53,076 nt of DNA, from the IMG/VR virus record IMGVR_UViG_3300038393_002038, positions 1 through 53,076 of that record; one strand, given 5' to 3'. The notes beneath the pieces were generated by a model. That model had not been told where the DNA came from. It ran no database searches and saw only the letters and a program-made list of their open reading frames with translations. Position numbers and translations under genes: made by a program. The stretch is from a virus. Its lineage: Duplodnaviria > Caudoviricetes. Positions 16,858 to 53,025 of the stretch are shown piece by piece (the stretch's first letter is position 1; each line of letters starts with the position of its first letter).

Positions 16858-17850
16858 TCATAAAACTTTGCCGTTTAAAATCCGTTTATTTCGGAACTCA
16901 TAATTTTTCCCATTGCTGTCTAAATCCACTATTGCAAAGCCGTGATTCCATTTATTTAGTGGCATATATTGTGGGTGGAGTTCGCTTAAACATCCCACTG
17001 AAAAAGTAGTTACCATTTTCCCTGTTAAAGTTGGTTCGGTGTGCTCTGATGTCTGATGATTGTGGCCTTGAAAGCAGGAAACTTTTGATCTTAAAAACAA
17101 CCCCCTTGCAGGATTAACAGGTGCTGAAATTCCGCCTATGTATTCGTGACCGTGTATTCCACATAATTCATTCATCTGCATATATCTTTTGTCTCCGATA
17201 ATGTCTACTCCCCTGGCTCTTGCTTTGATAATATTTTCAAAATCAAATTCCGTAACTCCTACCAATTCTTTGGCTTTCTCAAATAAAAAATGTTCATACC
17301 TCTCTTCATGGTTTCCAATCTTGAAATAAATTTTACACTTTAATTGTTTTTCAAAAACATCAAACAAGGATTTAAAAATATCCAGTTCGAGAGCAAAATT
17401 TCTTTTTCCTGGATCCTTCGTGTACCTGCTTAATTTGTGGCAATCTATTGTGTCTCCGTTTAATAAGAGTGCATCGGGCTTTTCTTTTTTTGAGTAAGAA
17501 ATAGCCGCTGTGAGTGCCGGAATATTGTGATAAGGTGCGTGAATGTCCGAAAGTATAACGATTCTCTTATGTCCTTTAAACACGAAAGGTGTGTAATCTG
17601 TTTCATCTGAAGCCGGTAGATTATACGGATTGCGCGGTCTTTCTTCCTTTAAGATAAATTCTGTTTTTTCGCCTAAATCCTTTAAAGCTGACTTCCCAAA
17701 TTTACCTTCGATATATCTAAGTCTGCTCCGCGCATCTTCCACATTTTTAAAAAGGAGTTTATTTTTGGAATACATAATCCTCGCGAGTTTCAAAGTAGGC
17801 ATATCAGGGTTCTTTTTGCGCCACTTTCGCGCTACGTCAGCTTTGTTCAT
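16858..17850 (-). CDS. Calcineurin-like metallophosphoesterase
   Basis: DIH, GD..D, GNHE, HGH, GHNH motifs. Confidence 0.9.
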   Translation of the reverse strand: MNKADVARKWRKKNPDMPTLKLARIMYSKNKLLFKNVEDARSRLRYIEGKFGKSALKDLGEKTEFILKEERPRNPYNLPASDETDYTPFVFKGHKRIVILSDIHAPYHNIPALTAAISYSKKEKPDALLLNGDTIDCHKLSRYTKDPGKRNFALELDIFKSLFDVFEKQLKCKIYFKIGNHEERYEHFLFEKAKELVGVTEFDFENIIKARARGVDIIGDKRYMQMNELCGIHGHEYIGGISAPVNPARGLFLRSKVSCFQGHNHQTSEHTEPTLTGKMVTTFSVGCLSELHPQYMPLNKWNHGFAIVDLDSNGKNYEFRNKRILNGKVL

Positions 17851-18308
17851 AATACAGGTTTAAAATATAAGTCCGCCTCCTCTTTTCTTCTTCTCACTAA
17901 ATCGTCTAAAATTTTCCCATCATTATAAATCCAGCGTCCGAATTGATTTCTGATATCAGGGTCATTGGGATTGTAACGGATTCTTTTTAGCAGAGTGGAA
18001 TTTTCAAAAGCGCCTATTCCGATATTGTACACGAGCGAGGAAATAGCATCGAATTGATTTTGATTGAGTTTAAGGTTCATGCCTCTTAAAACAGATGTTT
18101 TGTTTCCAACTTCCCACCTCAAAAGGTCTTCGGCTTGTTCTTTTGTGATCGTATCACCTAACTTGATTTTACTCCCATCCTTGTACATGGTAGAACCGTA
18201 ACCAATAGTTATAGGAAGCCCGTCTTTGCTTCCAGGGTCTTTGTAGGCATGAAGTACCAAGCCCTCAAAGTTTTTAATGATAGAGATGCCGTTTTCTGAT
18301 GCTGTCAT
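17847..18308 (-). CDS. Endolysin, GH24 lysozyme
   Basis: FEG...AY.D....TIGYG, NQNQFDA..S..YNIG, L..RR..E; start reassigned to MTASENG. Confidence 0.92.
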   Translation of the reverse strand: MTASENGISIIKNFEGLVLHAYKDPGSKDGLPITIGYGSTMYKDGSKIKLGDTITKEQAEDLLRWEVGNKTSVLRGMNLKLNQNQFDAISSLVYNIGIGAFENSTLLKRIRYNPNDPDIRNQFGRWIYNDGKILDDLVRRRKEEADLYFKPVL

Positions 18309-18725
18309 AATGTTGATGAAGTGGTTTTCCAAATTGTGAATCTGAAATAGCTTACATTCTTCCTTAATTCGGCTTTTCTCATTACAAGACGGATAAGAGA
18401 TACTTTTTCTTTTTTCATGCGTCAAAATTTGATTTTTCTGCCCACGTTATTTTTACGTGTCCGTTTTTACTTCGTTTTTGCCCCCCGAAGGGATTAAACC
18501 CGTCCTTGCCCGTCGGAATAAAGCAGCAAAACTTAATGCTCAAAATCACTTATCTCTCCATCAAACAACGCTACTGGCAATAGCTGTAATGTTGGTCATT
18601 GAATGTGTACGTGATGAATTAACCAAATTATACCTTCAGTAATCCCGTAAACGCACGTAAGCGCTCCGATACCAGCGAGCATAAAAACAATTTTTAAAAA
18701 TGTTTCAGACCATAGATTCATGTTA

Positions 18726-26200: not shown

Positions 26201-27295
26201 TGTAACTGAATCTACTTTATTTGAATTGTCAACCGGAGGTATCACAGGCGTTCCACCTTCCAGGCTTATGTAATCAATGTAATAAGTGCCTGTAGCTCCG
26301 TGACCTGTCATTGAAATAATTATCTTGTCATAAGCCGTTCCAGACCACGTAAAAGAGGAAAGCGGAATAGAAACATTCTGATAGGAACCAAACAGAGAAT
26401 TATTAACTGAAGCTGTAATTATATTACTTACGGCTGTTGTTCCGTTAAAAAACTGAAACTGAAAAGAATAATTCGAGTTATTTAGTCGGATAAAAGCCCG
26501 TAATGTTTTCGAGTTATCGACTGTTTGAGTAGTGGTAGTAAAAGTTAATGTAGAACCCTTTGAATAAGAGGACACATAAGCATCTTTGGTCCCGTGATAC
26601 GGTTGTGCAGTATTATTGAAGTCCACGGTCGCAGTTCCGCCTGTTGTCCATTCAGTATTCTCGTCATAGATTAAAGTCGAAGTAGTTCCGGTAGGTACAG
26701 TATCATTTGGATTCAAAGTAATCCCGGTCGTTAAAGCGAGTTGTGAAGCTGGGTCAACCTGTGGTGTAATCGGAGTTGAGGCGGCGATTCCTGTGATCTT
26801 CAAAGCCACACTATTGGTATCCACAGCGAATAAGTCAATTCTTGGATTGGTAGCATCTGCAGGATCAAGCGTTATCGTCGTAGCAGGTGAAGTGTAATAA
26901 ACTCCTCCTATAATGTACTGACAGGAAGAAACCAGGTAAGTAAGCCCTGAACCTGAGTAAGTTACTACGCCCCCAGAGATGATATGATTATACTGATAAG
27001 TGTTGACACCTGCAGCAGACAGTAAAGAATCTACCTGGTTTTTAGTATAACTACCCATTACCCACCTGTAACCATTCCACGCCCAAATATTTCCGTTCTT
27101 TATTGCAATAGCCCCGCTGTCGGCTACAGCTAAATGGACTGTGTCTGTTGGCTGAATGCTGGATGTGATAAATTTCGCGTTCTTCCAATCAAAGCCGTAA
27201 GCTCCTATTGTCTGGCGCAATTTTGTACTGTCATACTGGGCGGAAACGCTCGCTACAAAGGACACAGATAAAAGAAGTAAGAGTAATTTTCTCAT
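23204..27295 (-). CDS. Tail spike/fibre-like beta-helix protein with N-terminal signal peptide
   Basis: YGAKAD...AFQAMID pectate-lyase-like beta helix; fibre-like motifs; MRKLLLLLLSVSFVASVSA|Q. Confidence 0.8.
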   Translation of the reverse strand: MRKLLLLLLSVSFVASVSAQYDSTKLRQTIGAYGFDWKNAKFITSSIQPTDTVHLAVADSGAIAIKNGNIWAWNGYRWVMGSYTKNQVDSLLSAAGVNTYQYNHIISGGVVTYSGSGLTYLVSSCQYIIGGVYYTSPATTITLDPADATNPRIDLFAVDTNSVALKITGIAASTPITPQVDPASQLALTTGITLNPNDTVPTGTTSTLIYDENTEWTTGGTATVDFNNTAQPYHGTKDAYVSSYSKGSTLTFTTTTQTVDNSKTLRAFIRLNNSNYSFQFQFFNGTTAVSNIITASVNNSLFGSYQNVSIPLSSFTWSGTAYDKIIISMTGHGATGTYYIDYISLEGGTPVIPPVDNSNKVDSVTRISNSYYYWTKGVKHLISLATDSTAYHTIGQASDYFTLNTLDGRKDTVSFPKDTQYVKNPLYSDNDTLKFHSDSLTSVLKYSGIDSSAYDDNTLIPKGYLNDRIAEVTATGITRSELQDTAIAIRSAIPLQFNPIAGANVTLSGIYPNITFNSTASGATNSNIGSGYRLAVPFTNNIKTIFAVSPLGIDSVSNSNALTFTFDTSLYHSTAWNNVNYGSLSQQNTNTSNIASNTTAIAGKLSNITGLVTPGTNVIVAGSGTSGSPYVISSTGGGTSQLDWYYPESYGAKADSSTLNARAFQAMIDAMPVRGGKVHLSSGVYLFGDTTIRIDKPIMFEGNGMVDALNKVTTLITTYNRAMFNVVEDNVTFKDLTINDLQSSTPTSGSVGIKADSNYRSHQYIVGLTLQNVTVNGFFNNVEATGTVFFRFSNCRFSGIFNYGVDVANRFIPDAGDSYITGCTFLPSSSNAVAAIHQLNSGGLRITNCKFNWHTTTGWFNYNYLADSISGTSDLFTGMSSLENYKVSAIKIKKLPTGSFSLVNINNNEFGDFQNATAPAIDINGISNINIVGNTFSKGTIDTAIKMTSVTSSNILGNTYSSSYGVPVYYSGTNTNISGEGVALGTKNLLAKFTDSVHIGNSVFQDSSSVAAINLRAVTGGYVPNYISDGSIGQSKLSIVSSANSGTSEVSFINSNTAGLGGFSLWKQTGATSSTNLLTIKANGNSGFGGIVSPVAYVDIPAGTGSGSTGQIHLAPGKATNSDGYLSYDTAIGGKHLYFNIGGTQYRLDSQVVSGGGGTPLLADGSVPLTANWNVGNHNITAIASLSATTISAGSSITSNNTISANGAVSGTSFTSTQFNGGSGTLTGLLLRDFSQATSSVTAQNSLMAVWQGYVWNGTASQEVDYRAGVFPIGGTSTSEWKLSTSLAAGAYSDVLKVKNDGRVTLSNVINLKAYTVATLPTGTVGDVAYVTDASSPTALATVSGGGSTTVMVFYNGTNWIVP

Positions 27296-27306
27296 TTGTA
27301 AAAATT

Positions 27307-27351
27307 AAAAAGCCACACACCCTTAAAGTGCATGGCTTTCGTAGAAGCTCT
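27307..27351 (-). promoter_or_regulatory. Conserved leader attenuator copy 1
   Basis: AGAGCTTCTACGAAAGCC-stem-GGCTTTTT upstream of ATG 27295. Confidence 0.85.
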
Positions 27352-27367
27352 TTTTGATATTGTAAAA

Positions 27368-27384
27368 GTAATAAAATTTATTAC
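27368..27384. promoter_or_regulatory. 17-bp palindromic operator
   Basis: GTAATAAAATTTATTAC. Confidence 0.7.
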
Positions 27385-32232: not shown

Positions 32233-32941
32233 CTGAATAGTATTTAATTGTAGTAGTGTTTTTTATTTGTCCACACAGCATGTTTCTTAGTTTGCCATAT
32301 TTAATATTAATATCTCTTGCTGCGTCTTTTATACAACCATATACTTTCCCATTATTAACATCAACAACTTTCCGTGCTAAGTTTGTTTTATCTCCCAAAA
32401 GTCTCTCTCTCGCTGCCTTTTTATGAGCTTCTGTTGGTATATAAACAATCACACCTTTCATTCTTTCGCTTTGCCTTTTCTTAGATTCCGCTGACCATTT
32501 TTTACCAAGGTTAAACTTTTTACCTTTCATAAAATCGCTGTGGCTTTTCCTGAATTCATCGCTTTTTTTGTGGCCTAAAGCATAATGATTACCAAGAGCT
32601 TTTTGTCTATTTGCCTCACGGAGCTCTTTGGTCATTCTGTAACCCAATACACTGCCTGCTTTTTTAAGAATATTGAACGAAGGTTTTATTGTATCAATAA
32701 AATGTTGCTCTTTTTCGATAAGTCTACTTTTGTCAGAAACTATTTCTAAAACATCAAAATACAGATCATCTATTCCGTACTTATTTATGTGCGATTGCAG
32801 ACGAATGTTTACATGTTTCTGCAATCTTAAATCACTGAGATGTTGCCTTTTTCTGGCAGCAAGATTAATAGCGCTGCCAACATAGCATCTATCTGGCTTA
32901 CTTTTGCTTTTTATGATATAAATGCAACTTATCTTGTCCAT
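32219..32941 (-). CDS. GIY-YIG homing endonuclease with NUMOD3-like repeats
   Basis: CIY.I.......CYVGSA..R...H, E..EQ, FNI. Confidence 0.9.
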   Translation of the reverse strand: MDKISCIYIIKSKSKPDRCYVGSAINLAARKRQHLSDLRLQKHVNIRLQSHINKYGIDDLYFDVLEIVSDKSRLIEKEQHFIDTIKPSFNILKKAGSVLGYRMTKELREANRQKALGNHYALGHKKSDEFRKSHSDFMKGKKFNLGKKWSAESKKRQSERMKGVIVYIPTEAHKKAARERLLGDKTNLARKVVDVNNGKVYGCIKDAARDINIKYGKLRNMLCGQIKNTTTIKYYSDASR

Positions 32942-32954
32942 CGTTGTATAAAAT

Positions 32955-33001
32955 AAAAAAGCCCGATTCCATTGCTGAAATCAGGCTTTCGTTGAAGCTC
33001 T
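32955..33001 (-). promoter_or_regulatory. Conserved leader attenuator copy 2
   Basis: AGAGCTTCAACGAAAGCC-stem-GGCTTTTTT upstream of ATG 32941. Confidence 0.85.
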
Positions 33002-33579: not shown

Positions 33580-36500
33580 TTACCAATTTGTGTTTTCCTC
33601 AACATATTTAGTTTGACTACTTCCCCATTTCCAAATTGCTTCCATGCCAACATTTGAACTTCTCAGGCTCAGTTCCTTTTTGTTGGCAATTGAAGATAAC
33701 AACGGCCGCAAAATGTTTGTCTGCCTCTGTAAAGCAAGTTCTATCTGATCGGCGCTATTATCTCGCACTGATCCTACATTTAAAACAGGCATTGCAAGTG
33801 CCTTCATCATTGAAAAGAAGTTTGGATAGATCACGTCATTTTTCTTCACATAGGTAAGCGTGTCAGTTGAAGGTGTTTTTTCAATGGTTCCATCTTCTCG
33901 TTTAATATATTCCGGAACGCCGCCATCCCCAACTATCGCAGGTCCCTCATAGTTGTCCTTAAGATTTTTACCATGCTTATATTTTGGAACCGGTGTAGCA
34001 ATAGCAACGGCAAGTTGTGCAGCGCCAAGAGCTCCGATTAAAACCGATAATGGAATATTCGGAAGTGCTTTAACTACGGCCACGGCTGTTGCCAAAACTA
34101 TATTAAATATGGCTGTTGCTTTTTGCGCCCTCGCATTCTCTTCATCTGCCTGCTTTTGTTTTAAGGCTATCTCATCTTTTTGCGCTTGTACTCTTGCATT
34201 TAAAATCGTAATCTTATCTGCTTTTTCCTGCTCAGCAAGACCGGACGCGTTGATCAACTCAATTTGTCTGGCAGAATAAGCGTCTAATGCGTCGCTTTGA
34301 TCCTGCAAAGCGTTCTTTTGCCTTGTAACCATTCCATTGATTGCTCCCTCAATAACTGAAAAAACCTGTGTTCCAATATCTTTAATTTTATTAAATGCAT
34401 CAACCAGGGCATTTAATGAATCATCGGTAATTTTCTTATCCTGGTTTGACAGATCTGCTTTTAATTTACTAAGCTGTCTGTATAAATCGCTTTCCTTTCC
34501 AACGGCTTCCTGCACGGCTTTTAACTCATCCGTAACCTGTTTGATCCTGTCGTCATGAACTTTTAATTCAGAGTCTGAAAGACCTGCAACGCTTTGTCCT
34601 TTGAGATCGTTTAGCTCTTTTTGTAACTCAATCTCAACTTCAGCAGCAGATTTGGACGCGGCCAAAGACTTTTCGATGTTTTCGATCTGTATTTGCAGGC
34701 TATTCTTTGCATAATCATCGTCAAGTTTTAATTTTTCCTTATTGTAATTACCGGCAGCAATCTCTCCGTTTTTGTACATTTCATTGAGGTCAACAACCTG
34801 CTTACTATAACTTTCTTCCAAGCTTGCATTGCTAGCAGCGGTTTCTTCAGCAATCTTCTTTAGCGCCTTGTCGCTTTCGAAAGCATATTGCTCATAATAA
34901 TCCTTAACGATTTTTATTTGCTGCAGGCTGGCATCTTTAGAAAGATCGATAACAGCATTATTAAAGTCAGCAATAAGCTTCTTAAGCTCTTCATCTGTGA
35001 TTTTTTTATTACTGATTTCAAAAAAACCTTCTTGTTTGATCCGTTCAATATCCGGATCACTGATACCCGCCGATGAAAGATCGCTGGTATATTGAGCTTC
35101 CAGCGATTGTTTTCTAGCTTCAATAGATTTTTTTAAAGCTTCTAGTCGTTGCGCTTCTGTAAGAGCATCATTGTTATAAATATCCTGATTGGTTTGGGAA
35201 ATACGGTCGTAAATAGCTTTTTGAACGGCTGTGACGGCTGCAAGATCCTTTAATCTGAAATCTTCTTTTTCCTTATAAATTGCTTCATCAGAATCTTTTT
35301 GGGCTGAAGCAATATCGGCTGCTGCTTTTTTGGCCGCAATTAACTTATCTGTGGTGCTAACAGTAGGATCGTTTTGAGTGGAAATATTCTCAGCATTGAT
35401 AACCTTGATCTTTCCAGCGAGATTGCTCTTCAAGGCATCCAGCCTTTGGGCAAGTGTGGACCTGTCATTGTTTAAGATACGTTCATTGGCCGCAGTTTGA
35501 GCATCTGATTCGATCTGGACCATAGATAACTTATATTTCCTTAAATCATCATCGGAAAGTTTTATCTTTTGGTTTTTAAGGTTTTCAACTTGTGCTTCTG
35601 CGTCTGCGGATTCATTGAGGGCAGAAAGTCCTAAGTCTAAATTTGCTTTTCTGGCATCATAATCATCCTTATAAGCCTGAATTCTGTCATTATATCCTTC
35701 AAGAATTTTGTCATATTTTGGATTTCCTTTGTTGGCGGCATTATCCTCAAATTCTTTTTTAAACTGTTGCTCTATTCGTAACTGATTAGCCGCTTCAAGT
35801 GCTTGTTGTTGAGCTAAAGCAACTTTTTCTTTGGTAACGCCAAGTGTTTTTACATCATCAGCCGCATTCTTTGCTCTCAGTTCAGCAACTTTTAAATCCA
35901 ATGCAAGACTCTCTGATTGTGTTACTCCTAAAGCTTTTCTTTTGTCTACTATTTTCTGCAGGTCGGCAAGCTCTTCCTGAGAAGTTAGTTTACGAATATC
36001 GTCATACTGTTTGGTGGCATCAATAAGGTCTTTTATGGTTTTAACCAGATCTTTATTGGCTTTTTCTACTGAATCGATAGCGTTATTCCAGTTGGTGATT
36101 GCCTTGTAAATCTCATAAATAGCAACAGCTAATCCGACAATTACCAAACCTATACCAGTGGCCGCAATAGCTGTGGCCATAGTACTTGCACCAGCAGCAA
36201 CGGCCCCTTCAGAAGCGGCAACTGTATCCAGTCCCTCTGCGAGCGCTACAGCTCCAACTGCCTGTGCTTCCATACCTGCGGCTGCGGGAGCGCTGGCAGC
36301 GGCAAGCTCGGTACTTGCTGTAGCTGACGCCTGTTCAGCAGCGGCAGCCTCGCCAAGCGGAGCAACAGAAGCCCCCGCGGCGGCTCCAAGCTCTGCCTTG
36401 GCACCTGCAGCCGCTTCAGTTAAGGCGGCGTCCTTCGACACAGCGGCAGCATTTGTATTGACAGCAGTTGTATTTTCAATCGCTGCTTTTGTTGCTTTTT

Positions 36501-37923
36501 CAGAAGCGTTGACATCTTTTATTAAAGCATTGTTTTTATTAAGAACCGCGGTATTTACAGCAGCAATACCGTCGGCAACTTTATCCTGAACATCAGATAA
36601 TCCACTGTCAGCATCCGCGGCCGCACCTGTAGCAACAGTTCCTGCAACCTTCGCGGCAGCGTTTTTTATTTGAGCCGCCGTGTTTAAATCGAGTGCCGCT
36701 GTTGATTCGCCGGTAACTTTTGCCACAAGCGACTCAGCAGCTGCAAGAAAAGAGGTTTTTACGGTATTGAGTGCTGTGGCAATGGCACTCTTCTCACTTA
36801 TTAACTTATTAAACTCAGCTAACCCCTGTAACACGTTCATTATTGCTACTAACTTGTAAAGTTCCTTTTCTACTTTTTCATTCCCATCTGCAAATAAGGC
36901 TGCTGCTCCGGCTCCTACGGCATACGCTCCGCCTAATCCCCTTGCAGCAGCGGTTAATCCGGCCAGTACCGGCGAATCACTTTGTAATAAAGCCTGCTGT
37001 TCTTTAAAATTCTTTACATCACGTGCAGCATTGTTTACACTGGTTTGCAGCTCCTGAAAAGTCTTTGTTCCTCCAAGGCCGGCCTCATACATCGTACGCA
37101 GGGCGTTTTCGCTTTGCCTTAATTCTGATGTTAATGTAGAGAATCCTTTCGTTTGCTGGGCACTTAGATTGCCTAATATTTCAACTTCTTTTTGAAGTTG
37201 CTGGCCTGAAGTGGTATTTTCTCTTTGTGCCTGTGTGAGTTGATCTAGTTGAGTTTTAGCTTCGGCAAATCCTTTTTGCAAGATACCGACTGCGCCTGTA
37301 TAGTTTCCTACATTCCTTTGGAACTGGCCCACGGAGGCGTCAATAGTTTTTAAAACGGTAGCAAGGTCATTAGCCTTTTCGGCAGCGGCAGTAGCCTGTT
37401 CTTTAAATTCTGGATTGATAAGTGCCTGAGCGGACAACGCTTTGGCTGTTTTTTGCGCATTCTGGTATTCCTGGTTAAGCAGCTGATATGAATCCCGAAG
37501 GCCAAGCGTATTGATAGCGGCTTCCTTGTTGGCGGCATTCTGTTGTGTCTGTTGCACCTTTAGTTCGGCTATTTGTTTTGCCTCATCGGTACTCAGTGAA
37601 GCAAGTTTTTCCTTTTCTTTTTGAAGCTGTTTGGCTGATGCTGATAAATCGTTTTGTGCCGTCACATTTTGTTTTGTAGCATCCGTGCTTTGCTTTAGTG
37701 TTGAGGTTTGAGCAGCAATAGTATTGTTAAGGTTTTGAATTATTGGAGCGGCCTGTGATACACTCGAAACAAAATCTTTTATTCCGGATACCCCCTGCAT
37801 ACCAATTTTTATATCTTTTAGCTTATCAAAAGCAGATTCCAGTTGTTCAAGTTCACCAAGGGCAAACTGTGTATCATCAGCGAAGCCTTGACGGTCAATA
37901 TATTTACTTAATAGTTCATCCAT
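33580..37923 (-). CDS. Tape measure protein
   Basis: 1447 aa helical, Ala/Gln/Lys-rich, QRNVGNY motif, hydrophobic segments. Confidence 0.85.
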   Translation of the reverse strand: MDELLSKYIDRQGFADDTQFALGELEQLESAFDKLKDIKIGMQGVSGIKDFVSSVSQAAPIIQNLNNTIAAQTSTLKQSTDATKQNVTAQNDLSASAKQLQKEKEKLASLSTDEAKQIAELKVQQTQQNAANKEAAINTLGLRDSYQLLNQEYQNAQKTAKALSAQALINPEFKEQATAAAEKANDLATVLKTIDASVGQFQRNVGNYTGAVGILQKGFAEAKTQLDQLTQAQRENTTSGQQLQKEVEILGNLSAQQTKGFSTLTSELRQSENALRTMYEAGLGGTKTFQELQTSVNNAARDVKNFKEQQALLQSDSPVLAGLTAAARGLGGAYAVGAGAAALFADGNEKVEKELYKLVAIMNVLQGLAEFNKLISEKSAIATALNTVKTSFLAAAESLVAKVTGESTAALDLNTAAQIKNAAAKVAGTVATGAAADADSGLSDVQDKVADGIAAVNTAVLNKNNALIKDVNASEKATKAAIENTTAVNTNAAAVSKDAALTEAAAGAKAELGAAAGASVAPLGEAAAAEQASATASTELAAASAPAAAGMEAQAVGAVALAEGLDTVAASEGAVAAGASTMATAIAATGIGLVIVGLAVAIYEIYKAITNWNNAIDSVEKANKDLVKTIKDLIDATKQYDDIRKLTSQEELADLQKIVDKRKALGVTQSESLALDLKVAELRAKNAADDVKTLGVTKEKVALAQQQALEAANQLRIEQQFKKEFEDNAANKGNPKYDKILEGYNDRIQAYKDDYDARKANLDLGLSALNESADAEAQVENLKNQKIKLSDDDLRKYKLSMVQIESDAQTAANERILNNDRSTLAQRLDALKSNLAGKIKVINAENISTQNDPTVSTTDKLIAAKKAAADIASAQKDSDEAIYKEKEDFRLKDLAAVTAVQKAIYDRISQTNQDIYNNDALTEAQRLEALKKSIEARKQSLEAQYTSDLSSAGISDPDIERIKQEGFFEISNKKITDEELKKLIADFNNAVIDLSKDASLQQIKIVKDYYEQYAFESDKALKKIAEETAASNASLEESYSKQVVDLNEMYKNGEIAAGNYNKEKLKLDDDYAKNSLQIQIENIEKSLAASKSAAEVEIELQKELNDLKGQSVAGLSDSELKVHDDRIKQVTDELKAVQEAVGKESDLYRQLSKLKADLSNQDKKITDDSLNALVDAFNKIKDIGTQVFSVIEGAINGMVTRQKNALQDQSDALDAYSARQIELINASGLAEQEKADKITILNARVQAQKDEIALKQKQADEENARAQKATAIFNIVLATAVAVVKALPNIPLSVLIGALGAAQLAVAIATPVPKYKHGKNLKDNYEGPAIVGDGGVPEYIKREDGTIEKTPSTDTLTYVKKNDVIYPNFFSMMKALAMPVLNVGSVRDNSADQIELALQRQTNILRPLLSSIANKKELSLRSSNVGMEAIWKWGSSQTKYVEENTNW

Positions 37924-37936
37924 TTTCGTTTAAATT

Positions 37937-37983
37937 AAAAAAGCCACTACAACTTTCGCTGTAATGGCTTTCGATGAAGCTCT
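37937..37983 (-). promoter_or_regulatory. Conserved leader attenuator copy 3
   Basis: AGAGCTTCATCGAAAGCC-stem-GGCTTTTTT upstream of ATG 37923. Confidence 0.85.
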
Positions 37984-44794: not shown

Positions 44795-46225
44795 TTAATT
44801 ATTGTTGTTTCCGGAACTGCTTGAATTATCCGCAACAGTTATCTGCGCCGGTGAATTAAATTTTTTACCAAGGGCAACCCATTGATAGTAATACATGTCT
44901 CCATCAGGTATAGGATCCATCTGGTTAATCGCCAGCCATTGATTAGCTGTGATGATATTATTTTGCCACTCAATAAGTAATCCCTGATTTAAATAAAGCC
45001 TTGCACGGCCGCTGTTGATTTTGTCTTCCTGAAGAACAGGAATATGGCTAAAATCTTTTTTAATCGATACTCCATAATCAGCGGCGCCAAAGAATTCACT
45101 AATTTGTTCATACACCATATTCGAAAAGGGAATTACAAAATCCTGATACAGTTGTTTTTTGAAGGCTTCTGCCTCAGTACCTGATATTGATGTTGTATTT
45201 GCAGCAGCAAGAAGTCTGTAGGGATAATTCAGGGCGTCTGCTATTACCATTGTATCATCTTCGGCCCACTCAGTTAGCATAAGGTCCCTGTAAGGCATCC
45301 CCATTTGTTGCCATTTTAAAGCGCTGTTGGATACGATGAACTTCCATTGATTACTCTTTAATCCGTACCTGAGAAGATCGGTCTGTATCTCCTCTTTCTC
45401 ATCCTCATCCAACGGAATAACACCGGCCGGATCTTTTTCGGGTGTGAGAATTCCAAGTGCCCCACGGTAATGAATCAATGCTCCCTTACTGTTGTAAATC
45501 CCTATAACATTCGAGATATTTTGTTGGATAGACTTTATGGGACTGTTAGGTAGAAACAAGTGATTAAAGCCCGGCGTAATATCTTTGATAATGATTACGT
45601 CATCCTGACTCAGTGTAGTGATTTCGTTTCCATAACGGACCACTATCGATTCGATATAATTCCCTTTATCACTGAAGAAAGTTTTTTTGCTGGTGGTGAT
45701 TTCGCACATGTAGGGCGGAATGTTCCACATCGCAGTAGCGTCTTCATTTTTAAAGCCAACAGGCTTCACAGGAAGCCACACAGCGTAACCAAATAGGCGG
45801 AGATAAATCGCCGTTTGTGCGTCAAACTGTTTACCGTTTTGCATAGGATTCGGCCTGAGCAGTAATTTTTGAATCTTCTTGGTGTACGGATTGGTTACAT
45901 CTTTGTCTTTGGCATCAGCAAATCTTATTTTTCCATTCACATAAGCATAAGCCTGTTTATTAACTATAGAGTAAATAGGAGCGCAGCATTCATAAGCTTT
46001 GACAATATCTTTGAGACCGCCATAAGAAAAGAAAACATCAAAGGATCCCGCTCCGCCAAAATTCCATCCTTCATTTCCAAAAGCAATACCACCAGAGCGG
46101 TAATTTATAGGATTGATAACGTCTGACTGGATCGTGCCGCCAAGCCCCATGTCAAGCCCGAAAAAAGACTTTGCAGCGTTTCCGCTTATCCTTGCGATTT
46201 TATTAAATGCTTTCTCTTTTGTCAT
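44795..46225 (-). CDS. Portal protein
   Basis: LL.RPNPMQ...F, LFGYA; HK97-like portal size and position. Confidence 0.88.
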   Translation of the reverse strand: MTKEKAFNKIARISGNAAKSFFGLDMGLGGTIQSDVINPINYRSGGIAFGNEGWNFGGAGSFDVFFSYGGLKDIVKAYECCAPIYSIVNKQAYAYVNGKIRFADAKDKDVTNPYTKKIQKLLLRPNPMQNGKQFDAQTAIYLRLFGYAVWLPVKPVGFKNEDATAMWNIPPYMCEITTSKKTFFSDKGNYIESIVVRYGNEITTLSQDDVIIIKDITPGFNHLFLPNSPIKSIQQNISNVIGIYNSKGALIHYRGALGILTPEKDPAGVIPLDEDEKEEIQTDLLRYGLKSNQWKFIVSNSALKWQQMGMPYRDLMLTEWAEDDTMVIADALNYPYRLLAAANTTSISGTEAEAFKKQLYQDFVIPFSNMVYEQISEFFGAADYGVSIKKDFSHIPVLQEDKINSGRARLYLNQGLLIEWQNNIITANQWLAINQMDPIPDGDMYYYQWVALGKKFNSPAQITVADNSSSSGNNNN

Positions 46226-46235
46226 TTCATAAAAT

Positions 46236-46283
46236 AAAAAAGCCGTAATACGTTTTAAGTATTACGGCTTTCGATGAAGCTCT
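46236..46283 (-). promoter_or_regulatory. Conserved leader attenuator copy 4
   Basis: AGAGCTTCATCGAAAGCC-GTAATAC/GTATTAC-GGCTTTTTT upstream of portal ATG. Confidence 0.85.
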
Positions 46284-46368: not shown

Positions 46369-46710
46369 TTAAAAAACTTTCAAGCACCCTTTTTCTATGT
46401 GTGTTGTAGCGAGAGCCGGATTCGAACCGGCGGCCTTCGGGTTATGAGCCCAACGAGCTAACCGCTGCTCTACCTCGCGATGTTTGAATTTACATGGCAC
46501 CATTTCTCTTTTACATTCTGCATGAACTCTGCAAATTTTAGGCGTGATGTCAATTGCTATCAATCCTTGTTTGAACTCAAATACATTTCTATGCCTGCAT
46601 TGAGAATTCGTGCAGTTCATAGAAATAGAAAAAGTTCCATCACCTATATCAACAAAGAGCAAAGTTTTATTGCAGTTCCTGCACTTCAGTTTTGTGTAAT
46701 TTTCCGGCAT
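46369..46710 (-). CDS. Mu Com-like zinc-finger regulator
   Basis: LKCRNCNKTLL...I...C....C..N, resembles the Com zinc ribbon. Confidence 0.7.
   Translation of the reverse strand: MPENYTKLKCRNCNKTLLFVDIGDGTFSISMNCTNSQCRHRNVFEFKQGLIAIDITPKICRVHAECKREMVPCKFKHREVEQRLARWAHNPKAAGSNPALATTHIEKGCLKVF
46407..46479 (-). tRNA. Initiator tRNA-fMet (CAT), CCA not encoded
   Basis: Cloverleaf; C1xU72 mismatch; GGG/CCC anticodon stem; GGTTCGAATCC. Confidence 0.93.
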
Positions 46711-46718
46711 AAAAATAA

Positions 46719-46735
46719 GTAATAAATTTTATTAC
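46719..46735. promoter_or_regulatory. 17-bp palindromic operator
   Basis: GTAATAAATTTTATTAC just upstream of the Com-like gene. Confidence 0.7.
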
Positions 46736-46858
46736 CAAGTAATTATTTTTATTGGTCAGTTATTTTATAGAAAACCCCTCGTAAAAACGAAGGGTGATTT
46801 TAAACTTTTATTCCTAAATTATTACCAATGAAATAACTATTGCTTTTCGATAGTAAAA

Positions 46859-46908: not shown

Positions 46909-47133
46909 TTACTCAGCTTTCTTTCTTTTCAGGTAACGCTGCCTTAGTTCATAAAGCAAGTTCTCGTAACCTACAAAGCATGGTATATAAACCAACAACC
47001 AAACAAGTGGATTTTGAGTATAAAACGGAAGGCTTGGATTGTACCAGTGAAGTCCAGACGCTAGTATCAGGGACAAAATAGAAAATTTTATAGTGAAGGC
47101 TATTGCGTAAGTTATTATTTTCATGATTTCCAC
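46909..47133 (-). CDS. Small 2-TM protein
   Basis: Hydrophobic segments. Confidence 0.65.
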   Translation of the reverse strand: MEIMKIITYAIAFTIKFSILSLILASGLHWYNPSLPFYTQNPLVWLLVYIPCFVGYENLLYELRQRYLKRKKAE

Positions 47134-47136
47134 AGG

Positions 47137-47346
47137 TTATAAATTCTGTAATGTCTCTGGAAGTTTTTTCTGCTGGTTTTCAAAGTGCGCACTATAAATA
47201 TCTTTCATGTAAAGTAGACATTTTTCTGTTTCTGCATGGCGGGACTGAAGCGAAACTTCAAATGCTTTTTTAAGTTCGGTGAAAATTTCAAGCCGTTCCT
47301 CTGTGGAAGCATTCATGAAGTATCCCAAAAATTTATTTATATCCAT
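47137..47346 (-). CDS. Hypothetical protein
   Basis: Operon ORF. Confidence 0.6.
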   Translation of the reverse strand: MDINKFLGYFMNASTEERLEIFTELKKAFEVSLQSRHAETEKCLLYMKDIYSAHFENQQKKLPETLQNL

Positions 47347-47396
47347 AGTTTTATTTATTTAATTTTTAGTTAGGTAAATCATTTACTGCGCATTGC

Positions 47397-47681
47397 TTAT
47401 AAATTTGGAAGCTTATTAATCCTATCGATATAATCTGAACAACCTCTGAAACCTTTCTTCTTCCATGCTTTTTTTAAAGCTCTGTAATGATTTAGGGCAA
47501 CTTGTACAGGGTATTTAAAAAGGTACTTGCCGTCGGGGAGTTTTTCAGCATCCACATATCCCCATTCTTCAAGTTCTTCCTGAGTATAGATGTGTTTTTC
47601 GTGTGAATTGCGTAAGACAATCGGCATTCGTTTGGCAAGGTCTCTAAGTTGGTTTTCGGTTTCTTTATCGAGCGGAAACAT
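47397..47681 (-). CDS. Hypothetical protein
   Basis: TAATG coupling at 47681. Confidence 0.65.
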   Translation of the reverse strand: MFPLDKETENQLRDLAKRMPIVLRNSHEKHIYTQEELEEWGYVDAEKLPDGKYLFKYPVQVALNHYRALKKAWKKKGFRGCSDYIDRINKLPNL

Positions 47682-47974
47682 TAGAAAGTTGGTTTTTGAG
47701 TTAATATCATCATTGGCTGGAAGTTGTTTCCAAAAAGACATTGACGGTACCATATTTTTCTCGTAGCTATAATTTCCGCAATCTCATCATCTGTTAGTTC
47801 GAAACAGGCCGTCATTGTCCATGGAATTTGCTTAGTAGGGACCGGGAGCAGAGGGTCATAAGGCTTTTCATTGTCAATTACCTCTTTTACTTCACAAAAA
47901 ACAGGAAGTGTTTCATATTCAGGTTGGTCTTCTGCAAGCATTACGTTCCGTTGTGGAAAATCTATTGCTTTCAT
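47681..47974 (-). CDS. Conserved phage protein
   Basis: F.Q.NV..AEDQPEY..LP, FQPM. Confidence 0.75.
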   Translation of the reverse strand: MKAIDFPQRNVMLAEDQPEYETLPVFCEVKEVIDNEKPYDPLLPVPTKQIPWTMTACFELTDDEIAEIIATRKIWYRQCLFGNNFQPMMILTQKPTF

Positions 47975-48087: not shown

Positions 48088-49347
48088 TTATGCAGCATGA
48101 TTAAAGCCTTTTATCAGTCCTCTTCTCACTGCATGAGTAAATGATGCATATCTGGCAGCGTCCATTAGATGATTATACCTGTCTTCAGGGGTATTGGAGT
48201 TTGTTCCGTCATCTTTTATTTTAAACGAATACCTGCGGCGCTCAAATTCTAAGTTTGAGCATTCCCCCGTTTCCGGAGGTAGTTGACACTTTGTAGTGTA
48301 GGCCACTTTCTTTGTTCTAAGATGTAATACTCCAGCATCTAAATCTTTAATTGCTTTAACAGCCACAATTCTTAATGCCCTGAGATCCCGCTGCATGGAA
48401 CTGTCATGATCAATATATACCGGTTGCCCAAACTTGTATCCCGCGTCAAGAAGTATTTGCTTGATCATCCCGGGGGGGATGCCAGGTTGATAGCTTAATT
48501 CTTCGAAAATGTAATCATAAAACACACCATTAATTCTTTGGTTAATTGCACATTTTACTATGGCTGTCGGATCATTAGTGTATCCGAAATCTATTCCCCA
48601 AATTACATCATCTGTGACAGGAAACGGATCAAGTATTTTAATAAAGTTCGGAAACACAAGGCCTGAAACTTGCGCTGTCAACCCCCTGGCGTAAGCTTTC
48701 CATAGTTCTCTATCGGAGATATTCTCAATTGAATCGTGCATTTCCTGTGTGATAAAATGATTATGTATATGCCAGGATCTGATCACTTTTACAGACGGAA
48801 ATTCTTTTGTGCCACTTTTTGGATTGATCGGGCAATTAATGATTTTATCATGAACCCAGAAAGAAGCTACAGGGTTATAATCTATGAAAACTTTTTGTTT
48901 GGTTCTTTTTATTAACTGATAAGCGCAAGGCCATTCAAAATTTCTTGCTTCTGAGATATATAGAATGTCCCTTTTGGGGCCGTCGGCGTCCTTAGCTTTT
49001 TCGTAAGATTTAAAGAGAATTTTACTCCCATTTTTAAAAAAGAAAGTATGCGTGCTTATATTGTATCTCTTGACAGAGTTCTTTATGTGTAAATTATAAG
49101 TTGCAAGACCTTCAGCTATTTCGAGCGTATCGCCTGTTAGTTTTGGGACAGTAGCGCCAACAACTTCAATCTTTATGTTCGGATTGTAGATTGCATAAAG
49201 AAATAAAACCCGTATGATTGCCTGCGATTTTCCTGAGCTGGTACCTCCCTGGTGGACAACGATCTTTTCTTTGGCTGCTATTGTTGCCCAAAATAACGGC
49301 ATTTTCGCTGCTTCCGGAAATAATTCAACGGATTCAATTACGTCCAT
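48088..49347 (-). CDS. terL: Terminase large subunit (PBSX-like)
   Basis: QGGTSSGKS, YISEA, DYNP, GIDFGYTNDP, NHLMDAARY. Confidence 0.95.
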   Translation of the reverse strand: MDVIESVELFPEAAKMPLFWATIAAKEKIVVHQGGTSSGKSQAIIRVLFLYAIYNPNIKIEVVGATVPKLTGDTLEIAEGLATYNLHIKNSVKRYNISTHTFFFKNGSKILFKSYEKAKDADGPKRDILYISEARNFEWPCAYQLIKRTKQKVFIDYNPVASFWVHDKIINCPINPKSGTKEFPSVKVIRSWHIHNHFITQEMHDSIENISDRELWKAYARGLTAQVSGLVFPNFIKILDPFPVTDDVIWGIDFGYTNDPTAIVKCAINQRINGVFYDYIFEELSYQPGIPPGMIKQILLDAGYKFGQPVYIDHDSSMQRDLRALRIVAVKAIKDLDAGVLHLRTKKVAYTTKCQLPPETGECSNLEFERRRYSFKIKDDGTNSNTPEDRYNHLMDAARYASFTHAVRRGLIKGFNHAA

Positions 49348-49491: not shown

Positions 49492-50031
49492 TTAATCATC
49501 ACCTTCAGTGTTTGATGGTAATTCGATATTGATTCCTTTAGGCAGGGAAAGCTTTAAGAATGATACATCGTTTCCATTTTTGTCTGTTTGAGCAATTTTG
49601 GCCGGTGCGTAATCGCCTTCCATTTTATTAAGCTCGGCGATAGCGTTAATTCTCGCTATATGGCCGGCTAGTTCCACAAATTCAATTGTTTCAAATGATT
49701 TTAAGGCAGGATTATATTTTACTTCCGTATAAGGAACTTGTATCTCTCCCTTGATTATTTGAGTTAAATATTCTTTCCTTTCATCTGCCGTCATTATGGC
49801 CTTTTTACGGGCTTCAATAGCGGCTTCCTTATCAACCTCAGCTAACTCTTTTTTTATGGCTTGTTGCTTAATCAAATATTGTTCTTGTGCAGATTTCCAG
49901 TACGTGTCGATAGTTCTTGTGGATTTTTGAAATTTTTTGCAATATTTTGCAATTACCTTATTCCTTTCGGTACCCTGTTCAATCTCTTTTACGATTGCAT
50001 CAATGATTATCTGTTTTGCAGCTTTCGGCAT
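49492..50031 (-). CDS. terS: Terminase small subunit
   Basis: Upstream of terL; ER.EYLTQII.G, AIAELNKM.G.YAP. Confidence 0.8.
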   Translation of the reverse strand: MPKAAKQIIIDAIVKEIEQGTERNKVIAKYCKKFQKSTRTIDTYWKSAQEQYLIKQQAIKKELAEVDKEAAIEARKKAIMTADERKEYLTQIIKGEIQVPYTEVKYNPALKSFETIEFVELAGHIARINAIAELNKMEGDYAPAKIAQTDKNGNDVSFLKLSLPKGINIELPSNTEGDD

Positions 50032-50043
50032 TTAATGTCAAAA

Positions 50044-50060
50044 GTAATAAAAATTATTAC
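50044..50060. promoter_or_regulatory. 17-bp palindromic operator overlapping a TACTTTTG -7 box of terS
   Basis: GTAATAAAAATTATTAC. Confidence 0.7.
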
Positions 50061-51574: not shown

Positions 51575-52774
51575 TCAAAAAACATTCTTCAATTTATTAG
51601 CCTCACTTACTAATTTACTTTGCTTTAAATGCATGTACGTCTTTATCACTTTATTACTTTTTACTCCAAGTATTGACATAGCCGCCTTTTCCTCAACTCC
51701 TCCGTCCACCAAAAAAGACCCCATCGTATGCCGACCAACATGTGAAGTAAGATTGATGTTTACGCCTGCTTTGGCTGCGAGTATTTTTAGATGAATATTA
51801 AAAGTTGTCCTGAAATTTTTCGGACTGGTTATTTCAAAATTATCCCGCAAGGACCATTCGAAGTATCTTCTTTGTCTTTCAGTTGTGATCGGTATTTGAG
51901 CGGTGTTATCATGCCTGATAGTCTTGTGTGGTTTAAACTCAAGATAGCCGGCATCATTAAACATGTACTGATCCAGTATCATCGCGTCTGATATTCTCAT
52001 TCCTGAAACACACATGCATAAAAATCTTCGTCCTACTTTTTTTGTTAGTTCCGGAAGATCTTCTGAAAGCGTGCGTTCAATTTTTTCAATGTCTGAAAGT
52101 TCGAGAAATCTTATCTTACTTTCGTCGGTTTCATAGCTGCCGACCTTAAATTGTTTAAACGGATTTCCTTCAGGTAAGATTATTTCGTTTGCAACGGCCT
52201 CGTTATAAACCATGCGAATAAATCCAAGCGCCTTCCATATGCTGTTTTTGTTTAATTCGGACTTATCTTTTTTCTTGTAGTCGTTTTGCATCCAAAATTT
52301 GTAAGAAGAGAGAAAAGAAACAGTGATGTGATTGAAATTAAGCTCTGGCTTAAAATGCATCAGCCTTTTTATTTCGTCTCTGTATCTTCGTTTGGTATCG
52401 GGCGAGTATCCTTTACCGTCTTTGAGTTTTTTATTCTCAATCACTGATTCTGCGTACTCATAAAAATTCTCATAAGCCGAATTTGATTTCAGGTACTGCT
52501 TAATGATTTCTTTGGTTAGTGGTAGTCCGAATGCCTGGCGTTTTACTATGAAGTTACTATGCCTGTTTAGTATGTTCTCAATTATGTTATTGATCAGCGA
52601 ATAATTAGGGCATTTCGGTTTTACTCTTTTTAAATCTTTGTCCCAGAATTCTGGCTTTACTTTTTGCTTTGTGTTGTCACTTCCGATATGCTTTCTTTTA
52701 AGATCAAACCGGATGATAATTGTTGATAGCCCCTGTTTGTTGGGTATCATTAAATCGGGATAGATGTTTACCAT
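51575..52774 (-). CDS. int: Tyrosine integrase
   Basis: GMRISD, K, SHVGRHT, catalytic Y; arm-binding N-terminus. Confidence 0.93.
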   Translation of the reverse strand: MVNIYPDLMIPNKQGLSTIIIRFDLKRKHIGSDNTKQKVKPEFWDKDLKRVKPKCPNYSLINNIIENILNRHSNFIVKRQAFGLPLTKEIIKQYLKSNSAYENFYEYAESVIENKKLKDGKGYSPDTKRRYRDEIKRLMHFKPELNFNHITVSFLSSYKFWMQNDYKKKDKSELNKNSIWKALGFIRMVYNEAVANEIILPEGNPFKQFKVGSYETDESKIRFLELSDIEKIERTLSEDLPELTKKVGRRFLCMCVSGMRISDAMILDQYMFNDAGYLEFKPHKTIRHDNTAQIPITTERQRRYFEWSLRDNFEITSPKNFRTTFNIHLKILAAKAGVNINLTSHVGRHTMGSFLVDGGVEEKAAMSILGVKSNKVIKTYMHLKQSKLVSEANKLKNVF

Positions 52775-52825: not shown

Positions 52826-52951
52826 AACCATGTTTTTTAATGCTATTTACTACCGTTTATTGCCGTCAAAATATGGGGGAGCACCTTCCCTTAAAAGCAG
52901 AAAAGACGCTGAAAGTAGCGTCTTTATTAAGTTTCGTGAATCTTGTGAGTG

Positions 52952-53025
52952 CGGACCGGACGGGACTCGAACCCGCGACCTCCGCCGTGACAGGGCGGCA
53001 TTCTAACCAACTGAACTACCGATCC
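52952..53025 (-). tRNA. tRNA-Asp (GTC), likely integration site
   Basis: GGATCGGTAGTTCAGTTGGTTAGAATGCCGCCCTGTCACGGCGG...GGTTCGAGTCCCGTCCGGTCCG. Confidence 0.97.

Follow-up and report, generated by a model that had tools for sequence, protein, structure and literature searches.

What does a small zinc-ribbon gene do when it lies directly before the portal gene of a phage, and when the element that separates the two recurs before other genes? This question is raised by the IMG/VR virus record IMGVR_UViG_3300038393_002038 (Duplodnaviria; Caudoviricetes), which was analysed whole and is called the window here (53,076 bp, estimated to be 98% complete). It encodes a Com-like open reading frame (ORF) of 113 aa at exactly 46369-46710 on the minus strand and, downstream of it, a terminator hairpin whose 5' arm is overlapped by an 18-nt block. 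A sequence-only reading of the window had taken the ORF for a homologue of Com, the zinc-finger RNA-binding protein that activates mom translation in phage Mu, and had proposed that it acts on the repeated leaders as an antiterminator or frees translation starts. Judged from sequence, this idea is largely supported by association, since gene and element occur together across phages. We hypothesized that codons 1–77 encode a divergent RNA-binding protein of the Com family, with the block as its cognate site, which allows read-through of the terminators; we give this hypothesis about an even chance of being correct.

Four copies of a block over a terminator hairpin

The core of the element, AGAGCTTC-N2-3-GAAAGCC, overlaps the 5' arm of a 14–15 bp terminator hairpin. 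The string AGAGCTTCNNCGAAAGCC occurred in four exact copies in the window, each on the minus strand. When up to three mismatches were allowed, 6 sites were found against 0.24 expected, a number reached in none of 100 shuffles, and a looser pattern, AGAGNNYC-N2-3-GARNNCC, returned the same four copies (0.07 expected). With their scores against the covariance model R1, the copies are:

46231-46283, minus strand: copy c4 (block 46266-46283, hairpin 46238-46272, U-run), before the portal ATG at 46225; R1 82.4 bits
37932-37983, minus strand: copy c3 (block 37966-37983, hairpin 37939-37972, U-run), before the ATG of a tape-measure-like gene at 37923; R1 78.6 bits
32950-33001, minus strand: copy c2 (block 32984-33001, hairpin 32957-32990, U-run), before the ATG of a GIY-YIG gene at 32941; R1 74.3 bits
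27301-27351, minus strand: copy c1 (block 27334-27351, hairpin 27308-27340, U-rich tail), before the ATG of a 1363-aa structural gene at 27295; R1 73.7 bits

Each hairpin had a perfect stem of 14–15 bp (−18.7 to −21.5 kcal/mol, z-score −3.35 to −6.1; centroid structure, and also the minimum free energy (MFE) structure for c1–c3), with the last 7 nt of the block (GAAAGCC) as the 5' arm. A run of 5–6 T followed, its end lying 12–15 nt before the next ATG, and a consensus scan for terminators also found c4. By the criterion of a stable GC hairpin followed by a U-run, the predicted folds of c1–c4 are intrinsic terminators. The leaders had previously been described as attenuators. Terminator hairpins overlapped by the block were indeed present, but the MFE folds contained no alternative antiterminator structure: MFE and centroid folds all kept the terminator, and its only competitor was a 4-bp helix of −2.2 kcal/mol, which would require a bound factor. 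As modelled, each element is a terminator to which a conserved 5' flank is joined, rather than a classical attenuator that works by RNA alone. Part of the block entered weak extra helices in the MFE folds of c4 and of the related locus L032, and these were dropped or weakened in the centroids.

The stem was conserved as a structure. Across 17 copies, 95.2% of the stem cells were paired, 7 of the 14 pairs showed compensatory changes, and none of 500 shuffles was as good. Little variation was seen in the 5' block and the seven lower pairs, and the upper stem varied freely. An unbroken run of at least four T followed GGC in 16 of the 17 copies (L094 reads GGCTTCTTT), and a start codon lay inside the hairpin in none. 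In L094 and L107, the next ORF of at least 50 aa began approximately 100 nt further on.

Copies c1–c3 lie 7–11 nt downstream of TTACTTTTA-type boxes. These recall the TAnnTTTG −7 box of Bacteroidota promoters, and transcripts may therefore begin at the element. Such boxes would also suit a block bound as double-stranded DNA by a classical transcription factor at the promoter-proximal copies, and the family members are labelled 'Com family DNA-binding transcriptional regulator' at NCBI. This explanation appears improbable to us. The fourth copy and the copies of other phages had no promoter-like box, the window copies are all on the coding strand, the copies in all 13 other contigs are on the same strand as the downstream gene, and the experiments with Com in the available text of PMC6483171 show RNA binding.

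Gene and element across phages

The co-occurrence of the two was followed along two lines. Firstly, relatives of the portal gene (46–65% identity) were fetched and inspected. The order zinc-ribbon ORF, element, portal gene was found in the window and in G004/L032, L039, L021/L040 and L048. Six informative portal relatives contained neither gene nor block: G001 (100% complete), G005 (99%), G002, G003, L043 and L046. The last of these had a terminator with an AAAAGCC base before its portal gene, without the AGAGCTTC flank and without the zinc-ribbon ORF. L049 and L050 were uninformative because they begin at the portal gene, and genome contigs scanned with a portal profile gave nothing.

Secondly, viral contigs were scanned for AAGAGCTTC-N2-3-GAAAGCC, which yielded 73 loci. 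Twelve of these, on 11 contigs, also matched R1, in which the hairpin and T-run are included. A Com-like ORF was present in all 11 contigs, directly upstream of the copy in 10 and 3.4 kb away in L066. Among the other 61 loci (531,009 bp), which served as controls for chance matches, such ORFs numbered zero with a hidden Markov model (HMM) of the A8 alignment and one, a weak match, with a Mu-Com HMM. Together with the window, G004 and the contig L123/G008, which was found via its protein, the block-bearing contigs amounted to 14. Each had a Com-like ORF, in 13 of them next to a copy. Phages with the motif but without the gene, named beforehand as the counter-example, were thus looked for and not found, and the six relatives above lacked both.

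The downstream genes in the other contigs were a head protease, the major head region and a tail assembly chaperone. Copies unlinked to the Com-like gene stood before other genes in the window (three) and in G006, G004 and L066 (one each). Conversely, a scan with a five-sequence alignment led to 80 Com-like loci being fetched, of which four carried the element, which is thus a feature of only part of the family. At high-GC Com-like loci, com overlapped DPPY-type methyltransferase genes, the Mu-like arrangement already known (PMC3299994). A first exact-motif scan had produced 27 single matches, approximately chance level by our estimate, one of which (L021) later proved real. In G008, a weak second R1 match (23.7 bits) was rejected as a plain terminator that lacks the bipartite block.

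The Com-like gene and its putative RNA site

Three features make up the Com-like ORF:

46480-46710, minus strand: conserved coding part, 77 codons, with homologues P0002–P0004 and syntenic ORFs in L032, L039, L021 and L048
46406-46479 (start 46406/7), minus strand: tRNA-Met(CAT), found with ARAGORN and Rfam (60.6 bits)
46369-46479, minus strand: ORF tail, codons 78–113, the translated tRNA-Met and 37 nt beyond it

The ribbon cysteines C10, C13, C33 and C38 are spaced C10-x2-C13-x19-C33-x4-C38 and read K9-C10-R-N-C13-N-K-T-L-L and C33-TNSQ-C38. Between the ORF stop at 46369 and the first block copy, at 46283, lie 85 nt. The coordinates, knuckles and spacing given in the sequence-only reading were thus confirmed, but the tRNA-Met in the last 36 codons had been missed. 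A second Cys/His cluster followed the ribbon (C60, H63, C66, C73, H77), of which C60, H63, C66 and C73 were kept across the alignment of the window subfamily. The second knuckle was C-x4-C in this subfamily and C-x2-C in L032, L039, L021 and L048. The close relatives from protein databases, P0002–P0004, shared 49–64% identity in a four-sequence alignment, with invariant cysteines and indels in whole codons, and a family HMM matched the syntenic ORFs of the four related phages with E-values of 1e-17 to 1e-23. By these alignments, codons 1–77 are a real gene family. Relatives were obtained only via protein databases and, with DNA, via portal homology: searches of viral, genome and metagenome contigs with the ORF protein or small alignments returned no direct relatives, nor did tblastn against deposited phages. 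PHROGs contained no named family for the ORF, and a PDB sequence search gave only noise (E ≥ 0.42). An AlphaFold (AF2) model from 8 sequences consisted of five strands and one short helix (mean predicted local distance difference test score 73.7).

Codon 78 starts on the first base of the tRNA, with no stop in between. The frame also reads into the tRNA in P0002 and P0004. Since P0003 and the L032 protein end before the tRNA, the tail is not conserved protein, and it is probably not a functional protein segment. The missing stop, together with an ATG only 8 nt after a promoter-like palindrome, which leaves little or no leader, could mean that the ORF is untranslated and that its 231 nt are merely the 5' leader of a phage tRNA-Met. 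We consider this very improbable, as protein conservation is evident in invariant cysteines and whole-codon indels, and the ORF is kept in L039, L021 and L048, which lack any tRNA. In G004, a tRNA-Met (L032 4630-4703) lies between gene and element as in the window, but has C1/A72 and a different anticodon stem. The window tRNA-Met has a C1/U72 mismatch, three G-C pairs in the anticodon stem (G29-G31:C39-C41) and A11 with U24, features that we take to be initiator-like. In the window, P0002 and P0004, where the frame of the Com-like ORF continues into the tRNA, processing of the tRNA 5' end would therefore leave a stop-less message. T-box-like sensing of the tRNA was considered and dropped; the block has 18 nt, its complementarity to the tRNA acceptor strand is 5 nt by eye, and G004 has none.

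Homology with Com had been claimed for the window ORF, and a search with the Mu-like Com HMM had been suggested as the check. That search returned no match at E ≤ 10, and the kinship was recovered by other means. In profile–profile comparisons with hhalign, the family alignment matched the Mu Com family (14 homologues) with probabilities of 88% (A6) and 92% (A8), over 30 columns that span both knuckles. When the non-cysteine columns were shuffled 200 times with the cysteine columns fixed, the shuffled alignments scored 17.1 on average (standard deviation 4.5) versus 38.3 for the real one, a score equalled by one of the 200. BLASTP of the window ORF against Mu Com gave 8 of 17 identities in the first knuckle only. 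The Com-like ORFs linked to the block in other phages were closer to the classical family: seven of the eight tested passed the curated cut-off of the Pfam model PF10122 (Zn_ribbon_Com; 22.9 bits) with 24.2–41.6 bits, L109 scored 22.6, and Mu Com itself scored 36.8. A profile of the element-linked ORFs matched the Mu Com family with 98.5% probability (E 2.7e-15). By profile–profile comparison, the window ORF is thus moderately supported as a remote Com relative, and the Pfam model, as these scores indicate, misses a whole branch of the family.

The target of Mu Com is described in the available text of PMC6483171. Systematic evolution of ligands by exponential enrichment (SELEX) with the Com zinc finger yielded a core GAG(N)2CC, mostly bipartite, and the element proposed to be recognized is CC(N)2-3GAG, placed in a short hairpin's loop. 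This hairpin adjoins the translation-inhibition structure and overlaps it in part, and Com melts that structure when it binds. The window block, read as GAG-CU-UC / N3 / GAA-AG-CC, agreed with the published motif at 8 of 10 specified positions, and the second copy of G004 and the site of L164 agreed at 10 of 10. Taken alone, the block folded into a 4-bp mini-hairpin (GCUU/AAGC, loop C-N-N-C-G-A, −2.2 kcal/mol) in all four window copies. When this mini-hairpin was enforced, a stem of 8–9 bp was left, off the U-run, with a total of −11 to −13 kcal/mol versus −18.7 to −21.5 kcal/mol for the full fold. Compensatory mini-stems were seen in the second copy of G004 (GCAC/GUGC), which follows a TTACTTTTG box, and in L164 (GAAC/GUUC).

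As a side observation, two to four tandem mini-hairpins lay 3' of the low-GC Com-like ORFs of L128, L132, L135, L140 and L151, with variable stems of 3–4 bp and a constant AGAGAA-type loop. Judged by their sequence pattern, they probably serve the respective Com proteins as cognate sites.

An internal string, AGAGTTCATGCAGAA (46516-46530, minus strand), had been put forward as an autoregulatory site. This idea found no support. The string encodes the conserved C-R-V-H-A-E of the second cluster and needs an indel to match the block; R1 did not find it at E ≤ 10, no terminator follows it, and its local fold had a z-score of −0.22.

The resemblance to Mu extends to the layout. In both cases, the gene immediately upstream of the target gene encodes a small protein whose N-terminal zinc ribbon has four cysteines and whose tail is variable, a GAG(N)2CC-like bipartite sequence is present (PMC6483171, available text), and a short hairpin with GA in its loop extends into the 5' side of a larger, inhibitory one. 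For c4 and 13 other contigs, this putative recognition hairpin lies downstream of the gene. Unlike Mu Com, the window ORF fails the Pfam model, continues into a tRNA and has both a C-x4-C second knuckle and an additional Cys/His cluster. Its inhibitory hairpin is an intrinsic terminator that leaves the start codon uncovered. Mu has one site before mom, a DNA modification gene, whereas the window has four putative trans sites before portal, tape-measure-like, GIY-YIG endonuclease-like and 1363-aa structural genes.

Proposed read-through and competing explanations

We propose the following sequence of events, with the 18-nt block AGAGCUUC-N3-GAAAGCC as putative cognate site. In the absence of the protein, the terminators would form and transcripts would stop, at c4 after the Com-like gene and tRNA-Met, and at c1–c3 right after the promoter-like boxes. 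Once the protein has accumulated, it would hold the block RNA as the mini-hairpin, which removes the lower stem pairs beside the U-run. RNA polymerase could then read into the portal, tape-measure, GIY-YIG and 1363-aa structural genes, and the region upstream of each start codon would be opened as well. What the sequences show is the gene family, the anatomy of the elements, covariation in the stem and the joint occurrence of gene and element; binding, the direction of its effect and termination as the regulated step are what we infer.

The same block might instead be bound with an effect on translation or mRNA fate, as in Mu: the big hairpin would be melted, a ribosome landing site without a Shine-Dalgarno sequence opened, and the U-run would be an AU-rich leader. 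Mu Com is a translational activator that works by melting an inhibitory hairpin (PMC6483171, available text), and the 12–15 nt between hairpin base and ATG in the four window copies suit such a role. In L164, moreover, approximately 20–80 nt after the Com-like ORF, a perfect bipartite GAG(N)2CC site precedes a hairpin in which an AGGAG just upstream of the ATG is paired; by its sequence, L164 appears to use the same design at the level of translation, in a host that uses Shine-Dalgarno sequences. For the elements with a U-run, we nevertheless regard purely translational control as unlikely. Termination is favoured because a run of at least four T follows GGC in all but one of the 17 copies, as in intrinsic terminators, because none of the hairpins contains a start codon, and because the next ORF is approximately 100 nt off in L094 and L107.

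Several results weigh against read-through by a Com-type protein. Neither the 113-aa nor the 77-aa form of the ORF matched PF10122 at E ≤ 10, the same held for its 8 closest relatives, and a six-frame scan of the whole record with the model was likewise without a match. The narrow four-member subfamily (A3) reached only 56.7% in hhalign against the element-linked Com proteins, and Foldseek of the structural model against the PDB returned nothing below E 1.5. The mini-hairpin is weak and occurs in the MFE fold of no copy, and its covariation comes from two variant sites only. In the contigs collected with an exact DNA pattern, the invariance of the block is by construction. In L031, L033 and L046, which are without the Com-like gene, a hairpin lies directly before the portal start codon; read-through is therefore not strictly dependent on the protein, and, from this distribution, the portal-leader hairpin seems older than the Com-like gene and the block. 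The complete phage G008 has one strong copy only, and the multi-target regulon is therefore seen only in the lineage of the window. Finally, as the gene and one copy are adjacent, their co-occurrence may partly be cassette linkage.

This last point leads to a further explanation, in which the element is a mere terminator of a mobile Com-like cassette, with or without the tRNA, the copies were spread by recombination, and the zinc ribbon acts elsewhere or not at all. The copy directly after the gene in 13 of the 14 contigs and the single strong copy of G008 agree with it, as do the varied cargo genes that com-like genes are reported to precede (PMC6240691, available text). We doubt this explanation. 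It does not account for the unlinked copies before other genes in the window, G006, G004 and L066, nor for an 18-nt single-stranded flank that is kept while the upper stem is free, given that a plain terminator needs no flank. In L046, the terminator is kept and the flank is gone where the gene is absent, and the AGAGCUUC flank matches the Com recognition motif.

Read-through by the Com-like protein would have parallels in known systems. At the ribonucleic antiterminator (RAT) sites of BglG, SacY and LicT, binding and terminator exclude each other, since the RNA site extends over the 5' arm of an intrinsic terminator. The window element has the same overlap, but the protein lacks a CAT/PRD domain and is a zinc ribbon of approximately 60–77 aa with an 18-nt mini-hairpin site. 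In phage lambda, Q and N are made first and then allow read-through of terminators before late genes. The proposed scheme shares with them a phage-encoded factor followed by read-through of late-gene terminators. It differs in that there is no sequence relation and that the predicted action is local at each terminator instead of a processive modification of RNA polymerase. Searches of Pfam and PHROGs gave no match of the window ORF to Q or N antiterminator families; an 'Antiterm' line at E 0.2 for the distant protein P0008 was discarded as noise.

Portable pairs of a com-like gene and a downstream gene, as in the window, have been described before. They comprise com-like and methyltransferase genes in FluMu and Pnm1, which are Mu-like prophages (PMC3299994), and com-like genes before LlpA bacteriocin and lysis genes in Pseudomonas tailocin clusters, whose general role was stated to be unexplored (PMC6240691). 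In the available text of these sources, the pairs involve single cargo genes in Proteobacteria, and no terminator-coupled or multi-copy site is described. In the open-access literature searched, we found no account of Com-type genes tied to terminator-overlapping sites or morphogenesis genes.

The gene content of the window is that of a temperate tailed phage. Besides the genes behind the four copies, the following features were located:

51575-52774, minus strand: integrase, adjoining a tRNA-Asp
49492-50031, minus strand: small terminase
48088-49347, minus strand: large terminase
46774-46795, minus strand: terminator-like hairpin that ends the small-ORF unit upstream of the Com-like gene
46719-46735: perfect 17-bp palindrome GTAATAAAWTTTATTAC, 8 nt upstream of the Com-like ATG, a promoter/operator candidate
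44795-46225, minus strand: portal gene
33580-37923, minus strand: tape-measure-like gene, 1447 aa
32219-32941, minus strand: GIY-YIG homing-endonuclease-like gene (PHROG 314, E 4.8e-27), behind c2
17847-18425, minus strand: endolysin

The tRNA-Asp (52951-53025, minus strand) lies at the end of the record next to the integrase, which suggests a temperate phage that integrates at tRNA-Asp. Four small ORFs of 69–118 aa, between the large terminase and the Com-like gene (46909-47974, minus strand), were without a PHROG match. A 227-aa ORF between the two terminase genes of G004 (L032 1822-2505) is a GIY-YIG-like candidate by eye.

The palindrome GTAATAAAWTTTATTAC recurred exactly at 27368-27384, upstream of c1, and near-copies with 1–2 mismatches were found at 50044, 47994, 49354 and 46859. 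In total, the window contained 9 sites with up to three mismatches versus 1.12 expected. The sites overlapped TTACTTTT(G/A) boxes, which lie upstream of both terminase genes (small and large), of two small ORFs, of the Com-like gene and of c1; the palindrome is a candidate for an operator common to the late promoters.

More tentatively, the Com-type zinc ribbon may here have been turned from a translational activator of one gene into a sequence-specific antiterminator, with a regulon of at least four intrinsic terminators before portal, tape-measure and tail genes in soil phages whose hosts look to be Bacteroidota. In the subfamily of the window, its mRNA is fused in frame to an initiator-like tRNA, and a stop-less message left by RNase P could couple the output of the regulator to tRNA maturation. 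We consider this wider scenario possible, though it would not be our expectation.

Com has so far been a one-off textbook case, Mu mom, with many unannotated relatives that precede cargo genes without an assigned role (PMC6240691, available text). The present association joins a Com-like gene to a defined 18-nt putative RNA site that lies over intrinsic terminators and is found again before several structural genes. Should this link hold, this phage group would time its late genes with a simple protein–RNA switch, and Com action would extend from translation to termination. The approximately 60–77 aa protein and its 18-nt site would also make a compact orthogonal regulator for hosts in which initiation is not led by Shine-Dalgarno sequences.

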